DNA of 41,696 nucleotides from a virus. The notes below the pieces were generated by a model that was given only the letters and a program-made list of their open reading frames with translations, had not been told where the DNA came from and did no database searches. The translations under genes and the position numbers were made by a program. Below, piece after piece: positions 209 to 41,696 of the stretch; position 1 is the first letter of the stretch, and each line of letters begins with the position of its first letter. Location of the stretch: IMG/VR virus record IMGVR_UViG_3300044856_000069, positions 1 to 41,696 of that record. One strand, given 5' to 3'.

Positions 209-245
209 CAATAAAAAAGCGGACAGGTGAAAAACCTGCCCGCTT
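209..245 (-). terminator. Intrinsic terminator / attenuator hairpin in the leader of the ParB-MTase/terminase operon
   Basis: On the minus-strand RNA, AAGCGGGCAGGU-uuuuc-ACCUGUCCGCUU forms a 12-bp stem (one G-U) followed by UUUUUAUU. It lies between the predicted promoter (269..297) and the RBS at 200..205. Confidence 0.6.
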
Positions 246-268
246 CATACACTTTTTGCATTATAGTC

Positions 269-300: not shown

Positions 301-522
301 CTACGTGATAATTTTTTTCCTTTGGTCGTTTCGCCGGCTTCGGAGCGGTTCCCCTTTTTTGGCACGGCGCTTGTCCAGCTGTTCCAGAACCCAGTCGTAC
401 TCTTCCTGCGTGCAGTACAGACGCCGCTGCAGCCGCCGGTCGATCAGCTGCATCTTGGGCCTCCCTGCGCCTTCCCTGCGGCCACCGTTGTGTTTCCGGC
501 CGTCCTCTTTTTTCTCTTCCAT
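301..522 (-). CDS. Small basic DNA-binding protein, ribbon-helix-helix (MobC/CopG-like) candidate, 73 aa
   Basis: ATG at 522 with GGAGGTGAGGG upstream. The GAGRPK motif followed by RRLQRRLYCTQEEYDWVLEQL resembles the RHH strand-helix pattern. The gene sits directly upstream of the 269..297 promoter. Confidence 0.5.
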   Translation of the reverse strand: MEEKKEDGRKHNGGRREGAGRPKMQLIDRRLQRRLYCTQEEYDWVLEQLDKRRAKKGEPLRSRRNDQRKKIIT

Positions 523-542: not shown

Positions 543-572
543 ATATTAGCATAAAAGGACTTGAAAATTCAA
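543..572 (-). promoter_or_regulatory. Promoter-box copy P0 (GCTTGAATTTTCAAG...GCTAATATG)
   Basis: Minus strand: TTGAAT (572..567), 18 nt, TAATAT (548..543). The palindrome CTTGAA-tt-TTCAAG also forms a hairpin followed by a U-run just after the GGCT stop codon. Confidence 0.45.
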
Positions 573-1000
573 GCCCTTTTTTTGCTGTAAACCAGCGCTT
601 CCCGTAGGATCTTACGCGGCATTTTAAACAGCTTGTACGCATTGTCCAGCACGCCGTAGTATTGCAGGCTGGGAACGCCGTGATGCCGGTCCTCGTGCAT
701 GATATACACTAGCGCCGGCCCGTAGCCGTCCACCCAGAGGTACTGCTTGTAGTAAAACCTTGGGGAACCTTCGTAGCGGTCCAGGCTGCGCTCGTCGCGC
801 TCCGAAATTTCCCAGAGCAGCGCCGGAACCTTGCACCCATCCTCCCGCTCGATGGTGGCGTAGCTGCCGGTCTGTGAGCCCTTGAACATGAGCCGCCACC
901 CGTCCAGCGTGGTGGTCCCTACGAACGCGGAGTCCGGGCACCGGTACTCCATCTGATCCAGGTCCATGTTGGACCCGTAAGCAATGTACAATTTACGCAT
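569..1000 (-). CDS. Gamma-glutamylcyclotransferase (GGCT / AIG2-like) family protein, 143 aa
   Basis: N-terminal AYGSNM (the GGCT-family YGS motif) and the core WEISERDERSLDRYEG...YYKQ. AGGAGG lies 8 nt upstream of the ATG. Confidence 0.75.
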   Translation of the reverse strand: MRKLYIAYGSNMDLDQMEYRCPDSAFVGTTTLDGWRLMFKGSQTGSYATIEREDGCKVPALLWEISERDERSLDRYEGSPRFYYKQYLWVDGYGPALVYIMHEDRHHGVPSLQYYGVLDNAYKLFKMPRKILREALVYSKKRA

Positions 1001-1043
1001 TTTAACATCCTCCTTTTATTTGAACCGGGGCTGTGGGCCCCGG

Positions 1044-1940
1044 TTAGGCTGCCTGGCCGTGGCGCCATGCGCTGCAGCCCTGCAGGTTTGCCATCATGTG
1101 AGTGCGGCAGGTCTTGAACTCGTCGCCGATCAGGCCCAGCCGGAGCAGCCAGCAGCGGAACGTGTACTTCTCATTGTCGCTGACGGTGCGGTCCATCTTG
1201 ATGCTGCGGCTGTTGATGGCCAGCGCGCTGACCGCCAGACAGAACTGCACGTAGGCTTTGACCTTACCGGCGTGGGTGGTTCCGTTGAACAGCCGGAACT
1301 CTACGGTGCCCTTGCTGAACGTTGCGTGCAGGTTCAGGCCATGGTACCGGGTGTCGTTGTAGTGGTGGTGTTTGCCGTTTACGCTGGAACCCTGCGATTC
1401 GTACCACAGATGCTCCCATGCGTTCATGTTCGCAGGGCGCTCGCCCTTTTCGATGCGGTCGGACAGGTTGCAGTTGACCTTCTTGGTGTAGGTGCATTCC
1501 CGGCGGCCGGTGATGGCCAGGGCCTTGTACAGCATGTCCTCCTTGGACCGGAAAATCTTTACCAGGTTCAGCAGGCTGCGTGCGTCGTGCTTGTCAGCGC
1601 CAACGTGTACGTGGATGCCGCAGGAGCCGTCGGCCTTTGCGCCTTTGCCCCGCAGGATCCGTACCACTTCCTGCACGTCTTCCAGGTCGTCGTAGGTGCA
1701 GATCGGAGTGACCACTTCGCAAGCATGGTCGGCATTGGTCAGGCTGCCGTCCCTCATGAACTTCCAGGTGCGTCCCTTGCGGTCGGTGCAGGTCCAGGCA
1801 TCGTAGCCAATCTCGTAGCCATCGTACCGTGCGTGGGTTCCAAAGTATTCCGCAATCGCCAGGGCTGCGGTTTTCCGTTCGATCTTAACCAGCTCGACTT
1901 CTACTCCGAACGTTTGATTCCTTAAATCTAACTTTGCCAT
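1044..1940 (-). CDS. Glutamine-synthetase-like amidoligase (Amidoligase_2 family), 298 aa
   Basis: ATG at 1940 with AGGAGG 8 nt upstream (the track ORF begins at GTG 1964). The motifs FGVEVE, CGIHVHVG, RYHGLNLH and GTVEFRLF match my recollection of Pfam Amidoligase_2. Confidence 0.7.
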   Translation of the reverse strand: MAKLDLRNQTFGVEVELVKIERKTAALAIAEYFGTHARYDGYEIGYDAWTCTDRKGRTWKFMRDGSLTNADHACEVVTPICTYDDLEDVQEVVRILRGKGAKADGSCGIHVHVGADKHDARSLLNLVKIFRSKEDMLYKALAITGRRECTYTKKVNCNLSDRIEKGERPANMNAWEHLWYESQGSSVNGKHHHYNDTRYHGLNLHATFSKGTVEFRLFNGTTHAGKVKAYVQFCLAVSALAINSRSIKMDRTVSDNEKYTFRCWLLRLGLIGDEFKTCRTHMMANLQGCSAWRHGQAA

Positions 1941-2000
1941 GTTTGCGTCCTCCTTTATTTTCACCGGCCCCCACGGGGCCCTTTGCCTTTCGATGTGTGC

Positions 2001-2029
2001 ATATTAGCTCTCATTTTTTGAAACGTCAA
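2001..2029 (-). promoter_or_regulatory. Promoter-box copy P1 driving the amidoligase-GGCT cassette (TTGACG-17-TAATAT)
   Basis: Minus strand: AGCTTGACGTTTCAAAAAATGAGAGCTAATATGCAC. Near-identical architecture to 36382..36410. Confidence 0.55.
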
Positions 2030-2097: not shown

Positions 2098-2128
2098 AAT
2101 AAAAGAGGACGGCGTGTGCATGCCGTCC
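2098..2128 (-). terminator. Intrinsic terminator ending the early/middle operon (hairpin usable in both directions)
   Basis: GGACGGC-n8-GCCGTCC stem. The minus strand continues CUCUUUUAUU and the plus strand continues GTCTTGTTTTT. Confidence 0.6.
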
Positions 2129-2137
2129 GTCTTGTTT

Positions 2138-2311
2138 TTACTCTTTTTTTCTTGTTTTTTCCCGCGGCCGTGACATTTTTTTGCGCCGCACCTGCAGCTC
2201 ATGCAGGAAACCTCGCAGCATAGCCGCCGGAATGATCACGGACCCGTTGCAATATTTGATGTTCCGCAGGATCGTCCGCGCGTCCGCACTATCCGGCACA
2301 ATGTAATTCAT
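2138..2311 (-). CDS. Small basic hypothetical protein, 57 aa (below the ORF-track cutoff)
   Basis: Its ATG overlaps the upstream stop codon (ATGA). Translation: MNYIVPDSADARTILRNIKYCNGSVIIPAAMLRGFLHELQVRRKKMSRPREKTRKKE. Third codon positions are G/C-rich like neighbouring genes, and the terminator follows immediately. Confidence 0.5.
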   Translation of the reverse strand: MNYIVPDSADARTILRNIKYCNGSVIIPAAMLRGFLHELQVRRKKMSRPREKTRKKE

Positions 2312-2832
2312 CCATCCAACGCCTCCGCTCCATACAACCGCAACGCCAACACCCGGACCAGTGACGCCTTCGCCTTGGCCACCACCTGCCAGGTAGTGTC
2401 GTGCTTTTCCGCAATTTCCTCGATGCTCATGCGCTCAAAATAAAACTCCACCAGCCACTGGTAATCGGCATTCATTTTGATCGTGCTCAGGGCCCGGTCC
2501 ATAACAGCTAGCTCCTGCCGGTCGCGCTCCAGCTTGGCCTGTACCGCCAAAATACGGCCCTCCTGGCGCTCTTCCGGAGTGAGCTTCACCCCAGCCTGCT
2601 CCGACCACCGCACAATAGACTTACTGGTCTCCGTCACCTTTTCCCGCCGCAGATCTTCGATGTCTGCAGGCCAGCGATTATGCACGTTATCCACGAGCAC
2701 CGGGTACGCATACAGCCGCTGCTCCGTTGCCTTGTACCCAGACATCCGTGGCGGCTGGCGCTGGGCCAGCACCAACGGAACTGTCCGTCGCACTGTTTCG
2801 ATGATCAGTTTCCGGACCTCTTTGTCGTTCAT
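2308..2832 (-). CDS. Phage transcriptional activator, RinA/ArpU-like with sigma-70 region-4 HTH, 174 aa
   Basis: The C-terminal YFERMSIEEIAEKHDTTWQVVAKAKASLVRVLALRLYG looks like a region-4 HTH. ATG at 2832 with GGAGG 7 nt upstream. It is the last gene of the replication block, ahead of the packaging genes. Confidence 0.55.
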   Translation of the reverse strand: MNDKEVRKLIIETVRRTVPLVLAQRQPPRMSGYKATEQRLYAYPVLVDNVHNRWPADIEDLRREKVTETSKSIVRWSEQAGVKLTPEERQEGRILAVQAKLERDRQELAVMDRALSTIKMNADYQWLVEFYFERMSIEEIAEKHDTTWQVVAKAKASLVRVLALRLYGAEALDG

Positions 2833-2834
2833 CG

Positions 2835-3410
2835 TCACGCCTCCGTCGCTTCACCGTCGCAACCAAACCCAGGAAGCGCCTGATGTTTCGCGTCCTCCGG
2901 TTCCGCATCCTCCGCAAATTCCAGCACGGTCTGTGCACGTTCGCCGTTGATGTACGCCATGGACCGGTCAATAAACTGCCGGACGGTGTACGTCAGGTCT
3001 TGCCCCAGGACGTCCTGGTTTTCGTTTTCGCGGGTCCTCGGGTACGCACCATGATAGGTGTCAAATAGCCCGAAAAACGTCGTCTTGGATTTGACCTCGT
3101 GATCAGGCAGCCCGTACATGAGATGGAACGCCACCTCCTCCGTCCAGGACTTCTTACTGGCCTGCCGGAGCTCGATGCCATACATCGCGAAATGGAACGG
3201 CGGGTGCGCCATCGCAACGTCCACACCGAACATCTTCTGCATGACCGGCATCGACAACTGCTTGACCAGTCCGATCAATTCAGGTACCGGCGGCTCTTCG
3301 CACCGGACTCTAACCACATCGCCGAAACAATTCTCACCCTCGGCCTGGTAGCTGTACTCGATCGGAGTGACCTCCGGCGGGTTTAAAAACTTGAACGAAA
3401 TAAACTGCAT
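2835..3410 (-). CDS. Hypothetical protein, 191 aa
   Basis: ATG at 3410 with GGAGGTGG 5 nt upstream. Codon bias matches the genome. I recognise no motif. Confidence 0.6.
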   Translation of the reverse strand: MQFISFKFLNPPEVTPIEYSYQAEGENCFGDVVRVRCEEPPVPELIGLVKQLSMPVMQKMFGVDVAMAHPPFHFAMYGIELRQASKKSWTEEVAFHLMYGLPDHEVKSKTTFFGLFDTYHGAYPRTRENENQDVLGQDLTYTVRQFIDRSMAYINGERAQTVLEFAEDAEPEDAKHQALPGFGCDGEATEA

Positions 3411-6896: not shown

Positions 6897-8858
6897 TTAT
6901 GCCTCCTCAATTTTCAATTCTTTAATGTTTTCCTGTGCCTTGAGCAGCACCAACTGACTTTTTACTTCCGGTGTAAAGGTGATGCTTTCAGCGCCGTCTA
7001 CCCACACCGGATTCAAGATCTGCAGCTTCTCCTGCAGGGTCCCCACGATAATCATGCCGGCACGAATTTTCTCTCCCTGGGACAAATCCCGGTACCCGAC
7101 GCCGTGCATCGTAAGCTCGCAGGTTTCAACAATATCGTCATTCGTTACATTCTGCTGGAAAAGCCGCCATTCCAGCCCCGGGAAAAACGTGTTAACTTTG
7201 TCGGTCAGCATACGGCACTTGGCAATGACAAACTGTGTCACCAGCCGCAGCCGCTCCGAAGCAGCATCCGCGTTCTCCCGCTGTGTCTGCAGGTCGTTCC
7301 TCAGTGCGGTCACCTCCTGCAGCGTCCGCAGATTTGCCTGCATCTCGCCCAGCTTCGCCTGCAGCCGGCTGCGGATATTGCGCGCCTCTTCCACGTTCCT
7401 CTGCAACGGCGCCAGGTCAGGCTGTGTGCCACCATTCAGGTCTGCCAGCTCTCGCGCCAGCATATCCCGCCGGGAACGGTCGTCCCGGAACTCCGGCACG
7501 TCCTCCAGCTGCGGCAACGCACTCAGCGCCTCCTGCTCCTCTTTATGGATTCCATCAAGCGACTTCTGAATTTCGTCCTTTTTATTTTCGTCAGCCTCTA
7601 CCGCTTGCACCAGGGCGTCGCGCTCCTTCCCCAGCTCAACCAACCGGGCCGCTACCTGCTTTCCTTTGGCCACTATCGCCTCCAGGTTCCCGCTCTTTTC
7701 TGTATTGAAATGTGACCGCAGCTCCTCAACCTTGTCTGCAGGCAATGCCTGATGGCAAAAGGGGCACTCTGTCGCAGTAAACTGCCGTGCATATTCGGCA
7801 TCGTACTCTTTGTACAGCTCCTCCTTCTGGACTTCCGCAGCAGCGATCCGGTCGGCCTGCACGGCAATCTGTGCACGCTTTCTAATTATCGCCTCGTCTG
7901 CAGAGCGGATGTCTCCCTGTAGAACGATAGCCCGGGCCCGGAACCCGTCTTTGATTGCTGTGATTTTGTTATGCCGGCGTTGCTCCCAGGCTCCCAGTTT
8001 CAGCCGCAGCGCTTCCATTTCATTCTGGACCTGTACCGCACGCCCGCCGGACTTGGCATTTGCAAGCGCGGATTCGGCCTGTGTGACGAATTCTTCCTGC
8101 GCCTGGACCATTTCCTCCTGCTTGGCAATTTGCGCCGCCAGATCGGATTCTGTGACGTTCCCGGCCAGCTTCATAGTCTGATCAATCCGTACCACGCCCT
8201 CTTTTATTGCTTTGTTGGCCAGCTTCAGCTGGGCCGCAGACATGGACCGGATGCCCTCAAGGTCGTGTTTATCCAGCATAACCTCCAAGGGTTTTAATTC
8301 CGGATGGGCTGCGATCACCGCCGCATCATCTACGCCGCCGGCAATCTGCAGTAACAACGCCCGCTGCTGTTGCCAGGGAAGCCCCGGAAAATACGCCGGG
8401 TCACTGGTCAGCTTCATACGGTCAGGATCTATGTTCTCCTTCACCCAGGCATCATACCGAGCTGCCGGTACCGGCTCATCGTTGATAAAGTATTTCGTAG
8501 TATTGCCCTTGAAAATTTTATCGCCGGAGTTTTTGTCTGCGGAATACACCTCGCAGAAAACCCGCCGCAGTGTGTGGGCCTCTCCGTCATCGTCCACCAG
8601 CCTGCCGGTGACAGCCACCTCAACCTGCCGCAGCAACTCCCCGTCGGCCTGCCGGGGCCGGATGGTAGCTTCACCCTTCTGTCCGGTACCACAGACACGC
8701 CCCTGGCCATCTTTGCCGGTCAGCAGCCAGCAGAACGCGTCAAACACGCTGGTCTTCCCGGTTCCATTGGCGCCGGAGATGATCGTAATATTGCCAAAAT
8801 TTACCGTCAGATCTTGGTGCCCTTTAAAATTCTGCAGAGCCAGAGATAACAACCTCAT
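6897..8858 (-). CDS. Rad50/SbcC-like SMC-type ATPase with zinc hook, 653 aa
   Basis: Walker A GANGTGKT, a long coiled coil with a central CPFC hook, the signature LSQGEK, and Walker B VWVDGAES. ATG at 8858 with GGAGGAG upstream and an ATGA overlap with the upstream gene. Confidence 0.75.
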   Translation of the reverse strand: MRLLSLALQNFKGHQDLTVNFGNITIISGANGTGKTSVFDAFCWLLTGKDGQGRVCGTGQKGEATIRPRQADGELLRQVEVAVTGRLVDDDGEAHTLRRVFCEVYSADKNSGDKIFKGNTTKYFINDEPVPAARYDAWVKENIDPDRMKLTSDPAYFPGLPWQQQRALLLQIAGGVDDAAVIAAHPELKPLEVMLDKHDLEGIRSMSAAQLKLANKAIKEGVVRIDQTMKLAGNVTESDLAAQIAKQEEMVQAQEEFVTQAESALANAKSGGRAVQVQNEMEALRLKLGAWEQRRHNKITAIKDGFRARAIVLQGDIRSADEAIIRKRAQIAVQADRIAAAEVQKEELYKEYDAEYARQFTATECPFCHQALPADKVEELRSHFNTEKSGNLEAIVAKGKQVAARLVELGKERDALVQAVEADENKKDEIQKSLDGIHKEEQEALSALPQLEDVPEFRDDRSRRDMLARELADLNGGTQPDLAPLQRNVEEARNIRSRLQAKLGEMQANLRTLQEVTALRNDLQTQRENADAASERLRLVTQFVIAKCRMLTDKVNTFFPGLEWRLFQQNVTNDDIVETCELTMHGVGYRDLSQGEKIRAGMIIVGTLQEKLQILNPVWVDGAESITFTPEVKSQLVLLKAQENIKELKIEEA

Positions 8859-9217
8859 GCGAACTCCTCCCCTCGTGCGTAGGCAAATGCCTCGTCCCAT
8901 CCAGTGCCGACCAGCATCTCATCGGCAGTCTTGACATCTTTGCAGATTTCACGCGCCAAAATAAACTCAGATACGCATCCAACGCTTTCCTGCCAGTTTC
9001 CACACATCACGATGCCGTCGCAGCGCCGGAGCAGCTCCAGGCAATAATCCAGCCCCTGGATGTAGTCTGTTTTGCTATACGGACACCGGATCGCGTGCAC
9101 CGGGCTGACGAAACAAATATCCGGATACTCGGTCTGCAGAGCCCGCACTACCTCGTCCGCCTTGGCCTCGTTTTTCCGCTTACCCCCGTAGGGATGTGAC
9201 ACATAGTATATTTTCAT
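8855..9217 (-). CDS. Nucleoside 2-deoxyribosyltransferase-like fold protein (DUF1937/DUF4406-like), 120 aa
   Basis: MKIYYVSHPYGG...FVSPVH...LLRRCDGIVMCGNWQESVGCVSEFILA matches the pattern I recall for these families. GGAGG lies 8 nt upstream of ATG 9217. Confidence 0.5.
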   Translation of the reverse strand: MKIYYVSHPYGGKRKNEAKADEVVRALQTEYPDICFVSPVHAIRCPYSKTDYIQGLDYCLELLRRCDGIVMCGNWQESVGCVSEFILAREICKDVKTADEMLVGTGWDEAFAYARGEEFA

Positions 9218-9287
9218 TCCAATATCCTCCATGAACGCGGGCCGCCAGTGATAGAGCACCTCACCCCTTCTGCGTCTGCGCCTGTGG

Positions 9288-11308: not shown

Positions 11309-11824
11309 ATGTTAAAACGACTTTATAAAAAGTTAATTTCCTTAGTTGGCAGTAAGTCACAATCAAATCCGCTACCAAACCCCAAGACATGGCGAGAAGC
11401 ATTCGAGCAGGCACATGGGCAGCAAGCACGAGAAAGTGATGCACTTCTCCGAAAAGAAGCCAAACGCCTCACTGGATCGGAAAATTACAATACTTTTACT
11501 TTCAGTAAAGCCAGAGTCAGAGAAGCAGGAATCCATTGGTATATATGGGAAACATGTCAGGACTCCAGGGTAAGGCCAAGCCACAAAAACCTGCAAGGGG
11601 TAATTGTAAATTATAACGAAGCTCCCAACGCAGAACTGCTAATCGGAAACGGCCCCGGAACAAAACGCCATGCCGGAACTGCAAAAGGATGTAGATGCTA
11701 TGCCGCTCCGCTGATTATGGCCAGCGATGTGCATTGGCCTGCACGCGTTCATTACCAAGGCAAAATCAGAGTTATGACATTGTCAGAATTTAAAAAGATT
11801 TGCAAAGATAACATTTTTTACTAA
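11309..11824 (+). CDS. Stand-alone MuF/SPP1-gp7-type domain protein, paralogue of the virion minor head protein, 171 aa
   Basis: WYIWETCQDSRVRPSHKNLQGVIV...GCRCYAAPLI...WPARVHYQGKIRVMTLSEFKKI aligns with WYVWRSEEDSRVRDSHRLMDGVLI...NCRCYPEPLI...WPHKVYYGGRIQMMTLAQFKAI of ORF 34258..35106. Starts 16 nt after the repressor stop codon. Confidence 0.75.
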   Translation: MLKRLYKKLISLVGSKSQSNPLPNPKTWREAFEQAHGQQARESDALLRKEAKRLTGSENYNTFTFSKARVREAGIHWYIWETCQDSRVRPSHKNLQGVIVNYNEAPNAELLIGNGPGTKRHAGTAKGCRCYAAPLIMASDVHWPARVHYQGKIRVMTLSEFKKICKDNIFY

Positions 11825-13394: not shown

Positions 13395-13695
13395 TGTGAA
13401 TGAATTTCTGGTCTCTGTGACGAATTGATGAAAACTGCCAGGTATAAAGCCGGTAATCGAATTAGATAGAAATAGATAAAGAAAAACCCCGGAAGCCCCA
13501 ATTTATGCGGTCTCCGGGGATTTCTTTAGATAGAATTGAAAAGTCAAGCCTTATTCTTCCGTCTTGATAACCTTTATTTCAGGCAGGGAACGCCAGCCCA
13601 GACGGCGTGCGCATCGTGTCGTTTGGCAGGCGACGCCTGTGAATGAATTTGTGAAAAGTGAGGTTTAGATAGAATTAAATTGATTTAGATACATT
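13395..13695. other. Putative attP region: two families of arm-type repeats flanking a GC-rich core
   Basis: TGTGAATGAATTT at 13395 and 13638. TTAGATAGAA(T/A)T at 13462, 13526 and 13665, plus TTAGATACATT at 13685. GC-rich segment 13581..13637. Located just 3' of int, the usual attP position. Confidence 0.45.
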
Positions 13696-33016: not shown

Positions 33017-34261
33017 TTATACCTCCTTCTTGTAGTGCGGATTGTATTTTGCCGCAATCTCACGGCCCAGGGCCGCATCGTCAACAGGTTTGGAATCTTT
33101 TGCCCGGCGGGTAGCCTTCTGAATAGCCACGTAGCCGGAGTCGCGCACATTGCCGCGGATCATCTGCGCCAGTGCGTCAGCAGCCCGACGACGCTGTGCT
33201 TTATTCGGGATAGCAGCCACCACCGGACGCAGTGCTTTGATGGCTTCAATAGCAGCATCGCGCGCGCCGCAGCCGTCCTCCACAGCGTCCCCGGATTCTT
33301 CTGCTTCGATCAGGCCGTCAGCAACCGCGCTCTGGGCCTCGTTGATTTCTTCCGGATCCGCTTCCACAGCGTCCTCATCTTCAACGTCTTCCCGGTCGGT
33401 CAGCTCTTCCTCCAGGGCATCCAGAGCATCGCCTTCCTCTTCGTCGACGTCCGCCTCAGTACCGGCTTCTTCCTCTTCTTCCGGAACCGTGTCCTCAGCC
33501 GGCGGCGCCAGTCTCGCAGTCAGATCTGCGAGCGCATCTTCAATGCGTTTAAATCTGGCTTCTCTGGCTTCATTCGGGTCTTCCGGTTCTGCAGGGCTTT
33601 CATCCTTGCCGTCACCGTTGACCAGTTTCGCAGCCTCCAGCGCTTCTTCCGGGTCGGCGTCCTTGGCGAACGCAGCCCACATGCGCTGTAAAATATTACC
33701 TTTGCTCATGCGTTTTTCGCTCCTTTCCATCGCATTGTCATGTATGGCCACGCCGTGGCCGGCGCGACCTTTATCCACGACAGCAACGTGGTTCCCGCGA
33801 ATTTCTCTTTGTTCCAAGGTGTGGTCGCCAGTCGGAACCCACAAGCAGTTGTACCCGCATGAGATTTCACGTTTGCCATCTTGAACCGCGCGAACCAACG
33901 CGCCATCGTGAATAACTAAATCAGCCACCAGGCAGCCTTCATACTTGCCTGTGCCTTTCCGGACGTCCCGCACAACGCCCCGTGTGTATTGTCCGTAGTT
34001 TTCAGACGTCACGTCTTCATCCGGGTGGTTTTCCGTTACCGGCTTACCCTCAAAAGACGCCACCGCCGCCGGGGAAAAGACCTCATCTGCAGGACGGTTC
34101 ACCTTGAAAATTTCATCCGGGCGCTCGGTCTGTCCGATCTCCCGTCCCAGATAGTCCTGCACGCCAACGCGCGCGATGGGTACATCCCTGCAAATTAAAA
34201 AGCCCTCTGGCGTGCGGCTTATGCTGTCAGAGATGCGGCTTCCATAATATGCGGTTTTCAT
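33017..34261 (-). CDS. Scaffold / prohead-core protein (DUF2213-like) with acidic C-terminal half
   Basis: N-terminus EGFLICRDVPIARVGVQDY...FEGKPVTENHP. Long Asp/Glu-rich tract. Confidence 0.55.
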   Translation of the reverse strand: MKTAYYGSRISDSISRTPEGFLICRDVPIARVGVQDYLGREIGQTERPDEIFKVNRPADEVFSPAAVASFEGKPVTENHPDEDVTSENYGQYTRGVVRDVRKGTGKYEGCLVADLVIHDGALVRAVQDGKREISCGYNCLWVPTGDHTLEQREIRGNHVAVVDKGRAGHGVAIHDNAMERSEKRMSKGNILQRMWAAFAKDADPEEALEAAKLVNGDGKDESPAEPEDPNEAREARFKRIEDALADLTARLAPPAEDTVPEEEEEAGTEADVDEEEGDALDALEEELTDREDVEDEDAVEADPEEINEAQSAVADGLIEAEESGDAVEDGCGARDAAIEAIKALRPVVAAIPNKAQRRRAADALAQMIRGNVRDSGYVAIQKATRRAKDSKPVDDAALGREIAAKYNPHYKKEV

Positions 34262-35106
34262 GCTGCAGCAGCACCTCCTATCGCTTTAAACTGTGCCAGC
34301 GTCATCATCTGGATGCGCCCGCCATAATAGACCTTGTGCGGCCATTTGATATCGGTGAACAGGATCAGCGGCTCCGGATAGCATCGGCAATTGAAAATGT
34401 CGCCTGCGTGATAACTTCCGTAGGTCCGGTCTTCGCCGGCCAGGGCCTCCGGGCTCGGCGGGTCGTCCCAGCTTATGAGCACACCGTCCATGAGCCTGTG
34501 AGAGTCTCTGACGCGCGAATCTTCTTCGGACCGCCATACATACCAGCGGATGCCTGCCGCCTCGCTACGGGCCTGTGTGAGCACCGTGGACGCCTTGCTG
34601 GATTCGGTCCTTGCTATCAGCATCGCGTGCGCCCGGGTCATATGCGGCCATTTTTCCAGAACGTCCTCCATGATCGCTTCAGGGCGCAGGCCCTCGTTGG
34701 CTTCCCGGGCTACCATTTCTGTAACCTGTTTTGCCACCCGCTCCGGCATGGATTTGATCACTTCCGCGTTTCTGTCCACAATGTCCCAGAACGCAGTGCC
34801 GACTGCAGTCTGCCCCAGCTCTGTCTGCAGAGCGTTATATACGACGCGCCCTTTAGCCCCGGACCGGGCCGCCTCCCGCCACGTTCGGTGCCCGTCGGAA
34901 AAGATGTGCGTCGCAATGGACCGCGCCAATATAGCCGCTGCTTTCTGGTAGGTAGGGCTGCGGGCGTACCTTCGGATAGCCGCAGCTATTAAAAAAGGAC
35001 TCCGGACCCGAGATAACTCGGTCCGAAGCCCTTCTATCATTCGCGCCAGCGCCACGCCGTAACGGCGCTCAACTGATCGCTTTAATTGCCATTGTGGATA
35101 TCTCAT
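34258..35106 (-). CDS. Minor head protein, MuF / SPP1 gp7 family
   Basis: MLIARTESSKA...WYVWRSEEDSRVRDSHRLMDG...NCRCYPEP. Confidence 0.8.
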   Translation of the reverse strand: MRYPQWQLKRSVERRYGVALARMIEGLRTELSRVRSPFLIAAAIRRYARSPTYQKAAAILARSIATHIFSDGHRTWREAARSGAKGRVVYNALQTELGQTAVGTAFWDIVDRNAEVIKSMPERVAKQVTEMVAREANEGLRPEAIMEDVLEKWPHMTRAHAMLIARTESSKASTVLTQARSEAAGIRWYVWRSEEDSRVRDSHRLMDGVLISWDDPPSPEALAGEDRTYGSYHAGDIFNCRCYPEPLILFTDIKWPHKVYYGGRIQMMTLAQFKAIGGAAAA

Positions 35107-36350
35107 TTTTTCAGCTCATTAAATACCGCATCAAAAGCGTCCCCGGAAACATCATTCAAAAGAATGTCTGACAAATTTTTCTGCCGGTCTTCATCAAACC
35201 CGAGCCCCGGATCGTTGATTTTTTGCTGCAGGGCACCAACGGCCTTATGGAAATTACCGTCGGCCATGTACATCTCGGACTTCAGCATCATGGCCACCAT
35301 TGCGTGGTCGTTTTTCCCCTGCTGAATGTACTTCTTAGTTAGGTCGTCCATTTTTTGACCAGAAGCAGCAGCGCCCTGCGTTTTTGCATACTTACGCGCA
35401 GCCTCGATCTTAGGTCTTGCCTTTTGCAGTGTGGCGGCCGGAGCCGCAGCAGGCTTGGCCTGTTTTTCCTGCTTTTCTGAAGCCTTCATATAGGCTTTCT
35501 CGGCCTTGATCGCTTTTTGCTTTGCCATCTGCATGGCCTGCTTGTAAATTTCCGGATTCCGGTACAAGTCGTGCAGTCCTTTAGCATTCTCGGTAAAAGC
35601 TACATACCTGTTAAACGCGTCCTTGTACTCATTTTCTAACTGCTCAATGCTTTTTTCAGGTTTCGCAGCCTTCGGTTGCGGTTTGGGAGCCGGCTGCGCA
35701 GCCTTTGCCAACTTGCGCGTAGCCGCGATCTGCGGGCGGCCTTTTTCCAGCGTGGCCTTGGCAGCCTGGAACTTTTTCTGCTCCGCTTCCAGCGCCTGCT
35801 TCTGCGGATAAAGCTGATTCATGGTCTTCTCGTAGTTTTTGCGGCGCAAATCATCACGACGCCCGTTCAGGCCATACTCCTCATTGATATCCCGCTTTTT
35901 TTGCATCAATTTGTCGTATTTGTCGCTATACTCCTTCATCAGGCCCTTGCCTTTTTCTTTTACGCGCTCAGCCAGGCTTTCCATTCCGGGTTTGTTTTTT
36001 AAACGGCCGTAAGCATGGCTATAACGCCAGTCTTTTTGATGGTTATCCCAGAGATTCTGAATGTCTTTATCGACGTCCGCCTTTAGCTTTTCACCGCGAG
36101 CCATGTTACTTTTAAACTGTGAAACTGCGGTTTTTTTCGCTTTTTCAATTCCGGCATTTACACCAGCCAAAGCGCTGGACACGTTCTTCAATTGCTGGAC
36201 CTTCGCCTTCCCGCCGGACTGCGCCTTGATCACCGTCGCACCGCCTCCAGACGTGAACTGCCCATTGTCCGCCCGTTTGTGCTTGGACTCGTCCCATTCT
36301 GCATCACACGCACGGATGCGTTCCAGGTTTATCTGCGTTTTATCAGCCAT
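35103..36350 (-). CDS. Lys-rich helical virion-associated protein (possible internal/ejected protein), 415 aa
   Basis: GGAGGT RBS and its own promoter. The N-terminal motif DAEWDESKHKRADNGQFTSGGG is shared with the portal extension. Contains internal duplicated ATL(E/Q)K(G/A)RP(Q/K)I modules. Confidence 0.6.
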   Translation of the reverse strand: MADKTQINLERIRACDAEWDESKHKRADNGQFTSGGGATVIKAQSGGKAKVQQLKNVSSALAGVNAGIEKAKKTAVSQFKSNMARGEKLKADVDKDIQNLWDNHQKDWRYSHAYGRLKNKPGMESLAERVKEKGKGLMKEYSDKYDKLMQKKRDINEEYGLNGRRDDLRRKNYEKTMNQLYPQKQALEAEQKKFQAAKATLEKGRPQIAATRKLAKAAQPAPKPQPKAAKPEKSIEQLENEYKDAFNRYVAFTENAKGLHDLYRNPEIYKQAMQMAKQKAIKAEKAYMKASEKQEKQAKPAAAPAATLQKARPKIEAARKYAKTQGAAASGQKMDDLTKKYIQQGKNDHAMVAMMLKSEMYMADGNFHKAVGALQQKINDPGLGFDEDRQKNLSDILLNDVSGDAFDAVFNELKK

Positions 36351-36381: not shown

Positions 36382-36410
36382 ATGTTAGCTCTGACTTTTT
36401 GAAAAGTCAA
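36382..36410 (-). promoter_or_regulatory. Promoter-box copy P2 (TTGACT-17-TAACAT) heading the head-tail-lysis operon
   Basis: Minus strand: GGCTTGACTTTTCAAAAAGTCAGAGCTAACATGACC. The 18-bp near-palindrome TGACTTTTCAAAAAGTCA overlaps the -35. Confidence 0.55.
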
Positions 36411-36432
36411 GCCTTATTTTTTTAATTTTGGG

Positions 36433-40469: not shown

Positions 40470-41696
40470 TGACCTCTGCCTTGCCGCCGGTCAGCTGCTC
40501 CCAGCGTTCCACAATTACGTCGCAGTACACCGGGTCGAGCTCCATCATGTAGCAGGCCCTGTGCAGCTGCTCGCACGCGATCAGCGTCGACCCGGAGCCG
40601 CCAAACAAATCCAGTACCGTGTCGTCCCGCTGGCTGCTGTTTTTAATGCATTTAGCACAAAGCGCAATCGGCTTCATGGTCGGATGCTCGCCGTTGCGTT
40701 TCGGTTTGTCAACGTAGATCAGCGTGCTGGCGTCCTCGGTGTTCACAACCTCCGCAGCCGGAACCCGCAGCACCAGGTTCTTGTTCCCCGACGCAAAATT
40801 GATCAGCATGGACCCGTCCGCATCCTGGCTCATCACTACCGGGAAGTTTTCACTGATGGTCGTGCCCTGCTTCCGGCCCCCGAACCAGCGATGCTTCCCG
40901 CCGGCCTTCCAGCCATACAGAATCGGCTCATGTTGCCACTGAAAATCCTGCCGGCCCAGAGTAAAAGTGTTCTTGGCCCAGATCAGGCACTGCTTCAGCA
41001 GCAACCCGGAGTCAACAAACGCCTGCCGGAACGTTAGCGACTCGCTGTCCGCATGGCAGATGTACACCGTAGCCCCGGGCTCCAGGACCTCCTCGGCCCG
41101 CTGATAAAAAGAAAGCAGGAAGTCATAAAACTGACTCCCTGCCATTTTGTCGTTTTTGATTTTTAGGTGTTCTTTTGTACCGCCGGTGTAGTCGATGTTG
41201 TACGGCGGATCTGTGAACATCATGCTCATAGGCACCCCGCCGGTGAGCTTTGCCACATCCGCAGCGTCGGTAGACGACCCGCACATCAGCCGGTGTGCAC
41301 CCAGCTGGTAAATCATTCCGGGCTGTGTTTTCGGTGTTTTGATTTTTTCCACCGCGGCCTCGAAGTCGAACCCGTCCTCCTCCGGTTCCGGATCTGGCAA
41401 CTCGAACCCGAACGCCCGCATGTCAATGTCGGCGATTTGCAGCAGCTCCCCATTCAGCAGCGACTCATCCCAGGACGCCAGCTCGGCCGTTTTATTGTCG
41501 GCCAGCCTGTAGGCCCGTATTTCCTCTTCTGTGAGGTCGTCTGCCCGGACGCAAGGTACCTGCCGCAGGCGTAACCGTTTCGCCTCCTTGAGCCGCGTGT
41601 GGCCGCATACGACCACGTTGTCCTTGTCAATCACAATAGGCTGCCGGAACCCGAACCGCTTGATCGATTCTGCAACCGGCTTCACAGCCGGGTCGT
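40462..41696 (-). CDS. ParB-like nuclease domain fused to an N6A/N4C DNA methyltransferase (3' portion; 5' end at 1..194)
   Basis: ParB-N FGFRQPIVIDKDNVVVCGHTRLKEA. Methylase motif IV DPPY and motif I FGGSGST, in beta-class order. Confidence 0.85.
   Translation of the reverse strand, partial: DPAVKPVAESIKRFGFRQPIVIDKDNVVVCGHTRLKEAKRLRLRQVPCVRADDLTEEEIRAYRLADNKTAELASWDESLLNGELLQIADIDMRAFGFELPDPEPEEDGFDFEAAVEKIKTPKTQPGMIYQLGAHRLMCGSSTDAADVAKLTGGVPMSMMFTDPPYNIDYTGGTKEHLKIKNDKMAGSQFYDFLLSFYQRAEEVLEPGATVYICHADSESLTFRQAFVDSGLLLKQCLIWAKNTFTLGRQDFQWQHEPILYGWKAGGKHRWFGGRKQGTTISENFPVVMSQDADGSMLINFASGNKNLVLRVPAAEVVNTEDASTLIYVDKPKRNGEHPTMKPIALCAKCIKNSSQRDDTVLDLFGGSGSTLIACEQLHRACYMMELDPVYCDVIVERWEQLTGGKAEVIA
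41570..41696. repeat. Second copy of the 127-bp terminal overlap
   Basis: Identical to 1..127. Confidence 0.9.

Follow-up and report, generated by a model that had tools for sequence, protein, structure and literature searches.

Known pairings of amidoligases with gamma-glutamyl cyclotransferases

An association between Amidoligase_2 and AIG2/GGCT (gamma-glutamyl cyclotransferase) genes in mobile elements of Firmicutes was reportedly described by Iyer, Abhiman, Burroughs and Aravind in 2009 (Mol Biosyst 5:1636), and the Pfam description of PF12224 mentions the same neighbourhood. Both proteins are already annotated in PHROGs, as phrog_2443 ('amidoligase enzyme') and phrog_2520 ('gamma-glutamyl cyclotransferase'). 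The pair found in the window (the whole stretch of 41,696 nucleotides that was analysed) shows no essential difference from that neighbourhood, with which it shares the families, their adjacency and the host elements, namely prophages and conjugative elements of Bacillota.

In the butirosin pathway, a gamma-glutamyl group that BtrJ has attached to an amine at the expense of ATP is subsequently released as 5-oxoproline by the GGCT-fold enzyme BtrG, so that one intermediate common to ligase and cyclotransferase has a precedent. BtrJ, however, is an ATP-grasp and not a GS-like enzyme and works in a long pathway on a carrier-protein-bound substrate, whereas the phage pair comes without pathway genes. 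Gamma-glutamylcysteine ligase/YbdK (GCS2) and GGCT are the nearest structural matches and share the proposed chemistry, in which gamma-Glu-X is formed with ATP and then split into 5-oxoproline and X; they are nevertheless cellular housekeeping enzymes of glutathione metabolism that are not encoded as a pair, and the phage ligase is only remote kin. In PafA/Dop pupylation, a GS-fold ligase likewise makes a gamma-glutamyl-lysine isopeptide, and the phage ligase matches Dop, among others, in fold; in that system, however, the eraser is a second GS-fold enzyme instead of a GGCT, and the Pup tag has no counterpart here.

An Amidoligase_2 enzyme, in some phages together with a gamma-glutamyl cyclotransferase, also belongs to the 'peptidoglycan modification cassette' of phiEco32/LUZ24/RIO-1-type podoviruses (Hardies 2013; Iyer 2009; via PMC5498523, PMC3890496 and PMC10580990). 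Its function is likewise only predicted, as a cell-wall modification that blocks superinfection, but the cassette comprises at least five enzymes, including a second COOH-NH2 ligase, an ATP-grasp ligase and a class-II glutamine amidotransferase-like protein, and lies among the early/replication genes of lytic Proteobacteria phages. These three extra enzymes were absent both among the window ORFs, in a Pfam/PHROGs scan, and among the conserved neighbours of the relatives, and the phiEco32-type ligases and the window ligase are too distant for a mutual match at 1e-5. In the searchable literature, no substrate or phenotype is reported for the pair, as the initial annotation had said of the substrate, and no experimental function or enzyme assay for any amidoligase family member; a 2023 paper states that the functions still 'remain to be explored' (PMC10580990).

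With integrase, repressor, terminase and sheath all encoded, the window represents the entire genome of a temperate myovirus; its ends overlap by 127 nt, which makes it a circle of 41,569 bp. Its pair is an ordinary, typical and minimal member of a known but uncharacterised module. It is found without the catalytically dead ligase paralogue, DUF4314 and zinc-ribbon partners that are common in relatives, it stands upstream, not downstream, of the ParB-methyltransferase gene, and its carrier is a myovirus whose terminase is of another type. Being both typical and minimal, this copy is a convenient test case. The reading preferred here, to which a probability of about one half is given, is that the two genes form one mobile module whose enzymes first make and then cleave a gamma-glutamyl amide (gamma-Glu-X) in the cytoplasm.

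Genes, proteins and expression signals

The features of the locus are collected in Table 1. As the initial annotation had described, the two enzyme genes are co-oriented on the minus strand; a 43-nt spacer separates them. The ParB-methyltransferase gene starts at 194 and resumes at the end of the window, running down to 40462. Among species genomes, the closest match is 56% identical, and a host search via the exact protein led to one short metagenomic contig only.

Table 1. Features of the amidoligase–cyclotransferase locus (positions of the window)
Feature	Position	Strand	Description
Intrinsic terminator ending the upstream replication/late-regulator operon	2107..2128	minus, foldable on both strands	7-9 bp GC-rich stem and T-run
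Promoter-like P1	2001..2030	minus	CTTGACGTTTCAA-N10-GCTAATAT; -35 TTGACG, 17-nt spacer, -10 TAATAT
Amidoligase_2 / GS-like carboxylate-amine ligase	1044..1940	minus	298 aa; Pfam PF12224, phrog_2443
Intercistronic RNA stem-loop	1023..1045	minus	9 bp; overlaps amidoligase stop codon
Gamma-glutamyl cyclotransferase-fold protein	569..1000	minus	143 aa; Pfam PF06094, phrog_2520
Promoter-like P2, second motif copy	543..573	minus	CTTGAnnTTTCAA-N9/10-GCTAAYAT
Small basic ORF	301..522	minus	73 aa; GAGRPK arm, then strand-helix pattern
Promoter-like P3	297..269	minus	TTTACT-17-TATAAT with TG; followed by a terminator, the two lying directly upstream of the ParB-methyltransferase start
Strong terminator after P3	246..216	minus	13-bp stem and T-run; first real terminator 3' of the cassette, beyond the small ORF

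The amidoligase most likely starts at the ATG at 1940, which has AAAGGAGG just upstream; the GTG at 1964 chosen by the ORF finder is the less likely start. Profile searches placed the protein in the family to which it had been assigned from its motifs FGVEVE, CGIHVHVG and GTVEFRLF, all of which are present: the PF12224 match (E 1.1e-62, 212.5 bits against a cutoff of 22) covers residues 8-237 on profile positions 2-244 of 245, and phrog_2443 matches at 2e-97. All of 39 homologues retain residues E14/E16, H110/H112 and E214/R216, and a conserved two-helix motif (LLRLGLIGDEFKTCRTHMMANLQGCSAWR) takes up the last ~45 residues. Proteins in which this C-terminal motif stands alone are a detail new here.

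The AF2 model of the amidoligase (pLDDT 92.4) points to a GS/GCS2-type fold. Its best PDB match in Foldseek is YbdK (1r8g, E 2.4e-5, TM 0.42), followed by glutamine synthetases, Dop and GmaS; with TM values of only 0.34-0.43, the predicted relationship to GS/GCS2-fold structures is remote, and the similarity to solved GS-like structures is weak (TM 0.42, 10-14% identity). In addition, TIGR02050 gave 15.9 bits, far below its cutoff of 176, and phmmer returned no sequence relative of the amidoligase in the PDB.

The assignment of the cyclotransferase to the GGCT/AIG2 group, its YGSN motif (residues 8-11) and its catalytic-type glutamate all held up: PF06094 (GGACT) matches at 3.9e-12 (47.2 bits against a cutoff of 22.8) and phrog_2520 at 2.4e-41, PF13772 staying below cutoff (19.6 bits against 27), and E77 occupies the catalytic position, where it aligns with the human GGCT residue E98 that is changed to Q in the mutant structure 3cry (E98Q). 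Y8, G9, S10, N11 and E77 are invariant in 30 homologues. Foldseek matched the AF2 model (pLDDT 97.1) to human GGCT (2i5t/3cry/2rbh) at E 3e-11, TM 0.80-0.81 and 28% identity, and to YkqA at TM 0.79; the model is thus nearer to true GGCT (TM 0.81) than to ChaC (0.63) or GGACT (0.55). On inspection of their sequences, neither enzyme has a signal peptide or a hydrophobic segment.

The initial annotation had regarded the two genes as a self-contained, moron-like cassette with its own promoter and terminator, placed after the terminator of the early operon. The upstream terminator is well supported (dG -16.8, z -6.4, 0/200 shuffles equally stable), with compensatory stem changes in the relative L075. 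The promoter was found again by a scan: the -35 and -10 boxes of P1 are invariant in four relatives, the flanks varying, and P1 would drive the amidoligase–GGCT transcript. A 5'-UTR hairpin at 1966-1980 was no more stable than shuffled sequence (z -0.7), and Rfam families gave only sub-threshold chance matches in positions 1-2600.

The closing terminator proposed at about 551..575 did not stand. No terminator is called there; the apparent hairpin is the palindromic -35 region TTGAATTTTCAA of P2, a copy of the promoter motif CTTGAnnTTTCAA-N9/10-GCTAAYAT, of which the window holds 3 copies against 0 expected. P2 is conserved in L004, L007 and L075 while its flanks diverge, and it lies 21 nt upstream of the 73-aa ORF, the gene that it would serve. 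The first downstream terminator follows this small ORF (dG -26.6, z -3.1, again with compensatory stem changes in L075), and transcription from P1 would continue into the small gene. The cassette, not being bracketed by a terminator of its own, is therefore not self-contained, but the moron-like layout remains reasonable in view of the upstream terminator, the conserved promoter and a GC content of ~0.60 against 0.53 for the window.

The product of the small ORF looks ribbon-helix-helix-like from its sequence pattern. It has no family match and its homologues occur in 5 close relatives only, so that it probably lies outside the enzymatic module. A possible kinship with the zinc-ribbon/DUF4314 partners of GGCT at other loci was considered, and no homology was found.

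Between the two enzyme genes, the stem-loop at the amidoligase stop codon (dG -17.4, z -2.9) is without a U-tract and is followed by the ribosome-binding site of the GGCT gene. The equivalent spacers of relatives are structured as well, with z < -2 in 61 of 83 distinct spacers and a median z of -3.1. This conserved intercistronic hairpin is a further detail new here, and it hints at unequal expression of ligase and cyclotransferase.

Conservation of the pair across mobile elements

A GGCT gene was found directly downstream of the amidoligase gene in 146 of 154 loci overall. Within at most 400 bp and on the same strand, it was present in 73/79 viral and 73/75 genomic loci, while the reverse test placed an amidoligase upstream of the GGCT in 70/72 loci, and the ligase came first in every paired locus. 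These neighbourhood statistics bear out the link in phages and conjugative elements that the initial annotation had mentioned. Adjacency of 92-97% in both directions spans 45-55% identity, and the association recurs at ~24% identity in Bacillus phage 022DV001. Relatives with the pair occur in Bacillota genomes, where 36 loci were of the conjugative-element and 29 of the prophage type, about half each among those classifiable. In both of these unrelated kinds of DNA-transferring element, the linkage of the two genes is maintained by selection.

Two independent accessory enzymes might also have come to share one insertion hot spot, for instance a cyclotransferase that degrades a host gamma-glutamyl compound and a ligase unrelated to it. 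Such independence is in keeping with the ligase occurring without this GGCT in 6/79 viral loci and in FP_Taranis, and with other phage lineages that pair the ligase with a glutamine-amidotransferase-like protein (PMC10580990). The adjacency in both directions at this level of divergence, the fixed order and the two kinds of mobile element nonetheless make it highly improbable, and they fit a module with a common gamma-Glu-X intermediate as preferred here.

The amidoligase family comprises at least 7,085 clusters at 90% identity (E <= 1e-5), with at least 587 amidoligase loci in species-representative genomes and at least 593 GGCT loci in IMG/VR. Most members come from gut or anaerobic Bacillota; the Ca. 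Heliusvirales, which are widespread phages of the gut, are among these sources. Solving one member would accordingly annotate thousands of genes. Another detail new here is a second, catalytically dead ligase copy at about 30% of loci, a short paralogue in which the ExE/HxH/ExR residues are lost. Two-piece tblastn matches and 'amidoligase x2' annotations had raised the question of split or intron-containing genes; the extra piece is a separate, shorter and degenerate upstream paralogue.

The gene neighbourhood differs between the two kinds of element. In phages, the pair mostly has a ParB-methyltransferase gene as its neighbour (70/80 viral loci, 23/29 prophage loci); none of the 36 conjugative-element loci has one, with the pair equally intact there, so that an obligatory functional dependence on the methyltransferase is ruled out. 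In conjugative elements, the pair is instead flanked by a VirB4/TraG-type ATPase and an NlpC/P60 cell-wall hydrolase, an adjacency that may be mere synteny, as is that of the methyltransferase in phages.

From the neighbouring methyltransferase, the initial annotation had named DNA or nucleotides among the candidate targets, and together with the ParB-methyltransferase island the ligase might add an amino-acid-type group to a modified base. The island surrounding the phage pair often contains Dcm and SAM synthetase as well and lies between terS and terL, the two-helix motif of the ligase can be read as helix-turn-helix-like, and amidoligase/amidotransferase Pfam domains do occur in thymidine-hypermodification clusters (PMC8989533). 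However, a methyltransferase neighbour that is confined to phages argues against a DNA-modification role, and methylated bases offer no amine or carboxylate for ligation. Furthermore, no hydroxymethylase, 5-hmU DNA kinase, aGPT-Pplase, TET/JBP, transglycosylase or other base-hypermodification gene was found in the window, which thus lacks the components that define such clusters (5-hmdU source, 5-HMUDK and aGPT-Pplase; PMC8989533), and the conserved neighbourhoods of relatives are likewise without the thymidine-hypermodification families (dUMP hydroxymethylase, TET/JBP, 5-HMUDK and aGPT-Pplase). The claim is weakened to the point where DNA or nucleotide modification appears quite improbable.

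Proposed chemistry and competing readings

YbdK (a gamma-Glu-Cys-type ligase), glutamine synthetase and gamma-glutamylmethylamide synthetase all activate the gamma-carboxylate of glutamate. In the preferred make-and-break reading, the GS/GCS2-fold ligase would, judging by its family and fold, spend ATP on turning a carboxylate into an activated acyl phosphate, which it would then link to an amine X. For this carboxylate, the gamma-carboxylate of free L-glutamate is the most probable candidate, since the partner requires a gamma-glutamyl group whose alpha-amine is free; the choice derives from that partner and not from the ligase itself. In the second step, for which the catalytic residues and fold of the cyclotransferase speak, the free alpha-amine would attack its own gamma-amide on the GGCT-fold enzyme to give X and 5-oxoproline. 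The product of the first step would be the substrate of the second, and gamma-Glu-X would thus be an intermediate common to both enzymes. The cyclotransferase would serve to strip a transient gamma-glutamyl group, or to limit or clean up the products of the ligase; with writer and eraser expressed together, ATP would be spent in a futile cycle, unless timing, amount or substrate form kept the two apart.

True GGCT acts on gamma-Glu-alpha-amino acids. The guess favoured here takes X to be a small amine of the cytoplasm, and not DNA: either an alpha-amino acid or an amine of a peptidoglycan precursor, for example the stem-peptide diamino acid. On this guess, the pair would act in the donor cell as the element is about to exit. 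Published predictions agree with this direction: cell-wall modification was proposed by Iyer 2009, according to the citing papers (PMC11318856, PMC10580990 and PMC5498523). The alpha-amine of the stem-peptide D-Glu is acylated, which makes a GGCT-type attack impossible, and a cell-wall role therefore needs a newly added glutamyl group. Solving one member would decide whether these elements modify cell envelope, protein, metabolite or DNA.

The cycle itself might also be the purpose, in which an amino acid merely serves as carrier for the conversion of glutamate and ATP to 5-oxoproline, so that the host is drained of glutamate and ATP or slowed by a build-up of 5-oxoproline. A truncated gamma-glutamyl cycle likewise converts glutamate and ATP to 5-oxoproline, and the nearest folds of the pair are those of consecutive enzymes of the gamma-glutamyl cycle, a YbdK-type gamma-Glu-Cys ligase and GGCT, with no consistently linked third enzyme. 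Such a metabolic takeover is nonetheless unlikely, because a growth-slowing cycle is hard to explain inside phage packaging or conjugative transfer operons, no immunity or regulator gene is linked, and neither protein matched any PADLOC defence model at E <= 0.01.

A protein target would require the ligase to modify lysines of proteins, from host or phage, with glutamate or the glutamyl side chain of a peptide, much as in pupylation, with the cyclotransferase erasing the mark or recycling gamma-Glu-Lys. The fold match of the ligase to the Pup ligase relative Dop (9cku) is consistent with tagging, as is the Pfam assignment of the cyclotransferase to the GGACT family, since gamma-glutamyl-epsilon-lysine is the substrate of its type member; the dead ligase paralogue could further serve as an adaptor. 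Yet the model of the cyclotransferase lies much closer to GGCT than to GGACT, no conserved tag-like small protein ending in Glu/Gln stands beside the pair, and no fusion points to a target, which leaves protein tagging rather unlikely.

The preferred reading of a transient gamma-Glu-X can be extended, speculatively, to an 'exit-time' device of Firmicutes phages and conjugative elements. Herein, the ligase would gamma-glutamylate a specific cytoplasmic amine of the donor cell, and the cyclotransferase, held at a different level via the intercistronic hairpin, would reset or confine the mark. The amine may be the cross-linking amine of a peptidoglycan precursor, polyamines that accompany the DNA, or a host defence factor. 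This extension is doubtful, but if true, mobile elements of the gut would possess a post-synthetic modification pathway that is both uncharacterised and very widespread, and the dead ligase paralogues, like the proteins in which the C-terminal motif stands alone, would be binding-only derivatives of it.

A conserved ligase-cyclotransferase pair

Apart from one mis-called terminator, the cassette described by the initial annotation was a real observation, and both of its family assignments proved solid. The amidoligase matched Pfam Amidoligase_2 over the whole domain (1.1e-62) and phrog_2443 (2e-97), while the gamma-glutamyl cyclotransferase-like (GGCT) protein matched Pfam GGACT above the curated cutoff (3.9e-12) and phrog_2520 'gamma-glutamyl cyclotransferase' (2.4e-41). 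The motifs quoted in the initial annotation are present, and they coincide with invariant positions when 39 ligase and 30 cyclotransferase homologues are aligned. Residue E77 of the cyclotransferase shares its alignment column with Glu98, the catalytic residue of human GGCT, and 3cry, the E98Q mutant of that enzyme, carries Q there. Both structures were predicted confidently (pLDDT 92.4 for the ligase and 97.1 for the cyclotransferase). The cyclotransferase model resembled human GGCT (TM 0.81) and B. subtilis YkqA (TM 0.79), and fitted ChaC (TM 0.63) and GGACT (TM 0.55) less well. For the ligase, no sequence relatives were found in the PDB with phmmer, and the best fold matches, namely YbdK (GCS2), glutamine synthetases, Dop and gamma-glutamylmethylamide synthetase, were remote (E 2e-5, TM about 0.4).

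Linkage was assessed in 80 IMG/VR loci and 80 loci from species-representative genomes, fetched by their ligases, most of which are 45-56% identical to the window protein. Among loci with enough sequence, GGCT was found within 400 bp downstream of the ligase on the same strand in 73/79 viral and 73/75 genomic cases. In the reverse test, starting from GGCT, a full-length ligase stood directly upstream in 70 of 72 loci, and the order ligase-GGCT never changed in the loci examined. These counts bear out the linkage claimed for phages and conjugative elements. The genomic loci included 29 prophage loci (terminase or portal nearby) and 36 conjugative-element loci, and in the latter a VirB4/TraG-type P-loop ATPase flanks the pair on one side, an NlpC/P60 cell-wall hydrolase on the other, and a MobL relaxase is encoded a few kb off. 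The same association occurs in Bacillus phage 022DV001, whose ligase is only about 24% identical; in Arthrobacter phages, the ligase is instead paired with a glutamine-amidotransferase-domain protein.

Iyer et al. (in 2009) and the Pfam PF12224 entry are reported to place these ligases, in Firmicutes, beside an AIG2-family cyclotransferase and, in Proteobacteria, beside a glutamine-amidotransferase-like peptidase. Both families are already annotated in PHROGs, and the two genes lie side by side in C. clostridioforme prophages (PMC11318856) and are listed as adjacent in a Terrisporobacter phage paper; the initial annotation was right on the literature. No experimental study of the pair's function was found in the literature searched, and a 2023 paper still called it unexplored (PMC10580990). 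The phiEco32/LUZ24/RIO-1 cassette is larger and of similar theme, but none of the extra enzymes that define it occurs in the window. The locus is a typical case of a known, uncharacterised pairing and is itself of modest interest; it stands for a large question, given how widely gut mobile elements carry the module.

Proposed chemistry and candidate targets

The characterised GGCT-fold enzymes (GGCT, GGACT, ChaC, BtrG) are all known to require a gamma-linked glutamyl group whose alpha-amine is free, and they release 5-oxoproline. Since the catalytic residues of the cyclotransferase are intact and it almost never occurs without the ligase, the simplest reading is that the ligase makes the cyclotransferase substrate. 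Free glutamate would be activated by the ligase at its gamma-carboxylate with ATP, a step known from glutamine synthetase, gamma-Glu-Cys ligase, GmaS and PuuA, and then joined to an amine X, after which the cyclotransferase would free X and 5-oxoproline. A precedent for such a couple is BtrJ/BtrG of butirosin biosynthesis, in which gamma-glutamyl serves as a removable group. Signal peptides are absent from both proteins, and the chemistry is thus predicted to be cytoplasmic.

A small amine, either an amino acid or an amine of a cell-wall precursor, is ranked first as X, because the fold is GGCT-like rather than GGACT-like, a cell-wall hydrolase neighbours the pair in conjugative elements, and a cell-wall-modification role has been predicted in print. 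Second place goes to protein lysines and third to a purely metabolic cycle, for which the truncated gamma-glutamyl cycle, an ATP-driven conversion of Glu to 5-oxoproline, is a precedent.

DNA is ranked last. In phage loci, the pair is part of an accessory island that precedes the gene for the large terminase; a ParB-methyltransferase neighbours it in 70/80 viral loci, often with a Dcm methylase and SAM synthetase, and HNH endonuclease and P27-type small terminase also occur. The window has inverted order (pair upstream of the methyltransferase) and another terminase type, with proximity still kept. Such surroundings could suggest a DNA-directed function, DNA being one of the candidate targets in the initial annotation. 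However, a ParB-methyltransferase lies within 6 kb of the pair in 0/36 conjugative-element loci, whereas GGCT adjoins the ligase in 35/36, so that the methylase link reflects phage synteny and no requirement. Family searches also found no genes in the window supplying an amine- or carboxylate-bearing base. The initial annotation was too generous to the DNA option.

Genome setting and transcription signals

The first 127 nt of the window recur at its end (1-127 identical to 41570-41696, exactly 127 nt), a k-mer-sized overlap that indicates a circular assembly with a true length of 41,569 bp. The window is the complete circular genome of a temperate myovirus, with almost all genes on the minus strand. 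Family searches identified an integrase and repressor; RecT, an SbcC-like ATPase, DnaD-like loaders and SSB; a sigma-region-4-like late regulator; a ParB-domain N6/N4 DNA methyltransferase, terminase and portal; and a MuF-like protein, tail sheath, baseplate proteins and endolysin. The GC content of the cassette (about 0.60 against a window mean of 0.527) and its locally different GC skew fit an acquired module.

Features around the cassette in the window, and degenerate ligases and motif ORFs in related loci
Feature	Position	Strand	Remark
Late-regulator-like gene	2838..2308	-	phrog_36
57-aa ORF	2311..2138	-	
Terminator	2128..2107	-	upstream of cassette
Promoter-like site P1	2030..2001	-	
Amidoligase gene	1940..1044	-	
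Ligase/GGCT spacer	stem-loop 1023-1045		43 nt, 9-bp stem-loop
GGCT-like gene	1000..569	-	
Promoter-like site P2	573..543	-	
Basic ORF	522..301	-	73 aa
Promoter-like site P3	297..269	-	
Strong terminator	246..216	-	
ParB-methyltransferase	start 194, wraps junction to 40462	-	then terminase and portal genes
Degenerate ligase paralogues	L084 3971-4621; L085 3578-4279; L001 4109-4873		216-254 aa, 'virulence-related protein'
Free-standing two-helix-motif ORFs	L170 6001-6207; L171 6001-6168		

The promoter expected before the ligase was recovered by a promoter scan: P1 is a reasonable sigma-70-type site, both boxes of which are invariant in four relatives despite changed surroundings. The upstream terminator likewise stands, being very stable (z -6.4 against shuffled sequence), with its stem kept in the relative L075 via compensatory changes. 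The 'terminator/hairpin' assigned to 551-575 was ruled out; this sequence is the P2 copy of an extended promoter-like motif, CTTGAnnTTTCAA-N9/10-GCTAAYAT, and looks like a hairpin because TTGAATTTTCAA is palindromic. As the first terminator 3' of the cassette is that directly before the late operon, the supposedly self-bracketed unit has its own start, P1, and no end of its own. Three full copies of the motif (2001-2030, 543-573, 36382-36411) occur in the window against none expected, with a partial copy at 13536-13547. At 36382-36411, the copy has a terminator before it and, after it, a 415-aa ORF of unknown function (36350..35103) that is wedged in between portal and MuF genes, which makes a second moron-like unit.

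P2 is conserved in relatives and precedes the 73-aa basic ORF, whose product carries a GGRREGAGRPK arm followed by a strand-helix pattern (RRLQRRLYCTQEEYDWVLEQL) and looks ribbon-helix-helix-like in its sequence. This protein had no family match, was found only in close relatives, and might regulate the adjacent late leader. P3 is an extended -10 promoter close to consensus (TGTGATATAAT), and about 22 nt beyond it stands a terminator with a 13-bp stem (region 216-297), whose stem changes in L075 are compensatory. Placed immediately upstream of the ParB-methyltransferase, the first late gene, this arrangement is reminiscent of a leader, or of a point at which antitermination controls the late operon.

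The intercistronic stem-loop (dG -17.4, z -2.9) has no U-tract. Across relatives (L001-L165), 61 of 83 distinct spacers gave z < -2 (median z -3.1), structure being kept with sequence conservation and U-tract absent. Such conservation suggests that the ligase and GGCT halves of the mRNA are unequally expressed or stabilised, as would suit a writer paired with a limiter, and the element may act in processing, stability or attenuation to set the ratio of both enzymes.

Recurring partners and further features

In relatives, DUF4314 adjoins the cyclotransferase or is fused to it, a 69-aa zinc-ribbon protein occurs in 30/80 viral loci (fused to GGCT in phrog_27033), DUF6329 recurs, and about 30% of loci carry, about 1 kb upstream, a shorter ligase paralogue in which the ExE and HxH motifs are lost. 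All four were looked for in the window and are absent there. The dead paralogue shares with the active ligase a C-terminal two-helix motif, LLRLGxIGxEFKTxRxxLLxxLxGxSAFR, which also forms free-standing 50-72-aa ORFs between methylases and terL in prophages, sometimes annotated 'virulence(-related) protein'. Degenerate paralogues and motif-only ORFs fill the same genomic slot in many prophages, even without active ligase and GGCT. In the prophages L170 and L171 (from Schinkia azotoformans and a metagenome), an island separates the small and large terminase genes and contains SAM synthetase, ParB-methyltransferase, Dcm, DUF4314, DUF5049 and DUF7678, the amidoligase-GGCT pair being optional.

Elsewhere in the window, a cluster at 13462-13693, adjoining the integrase gene, repeats TCTATCTAA three times exactly and once with near identity, with a hairpin and T-run at about 13480-13515. 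The motif count over the whole window is not above chance and clustering alone stands out; the cluster may represent arm sites for the integrase, or the attP region. A DUF4406 / nucleoside 2-deoxyribosyltransferase-like protein (phrog_355, 7e-17; 8855-9259, minus strand) is encoded at the start of the replication-recombination operon. In the lysogeny module, beside the integrase and a repressor-like gene, lies a 171-aa MuF-domain fragment gene (11309-11824, plus strand), a paralogue of the C-terminal half of the head-morphogenesis gene at 34258-35106.
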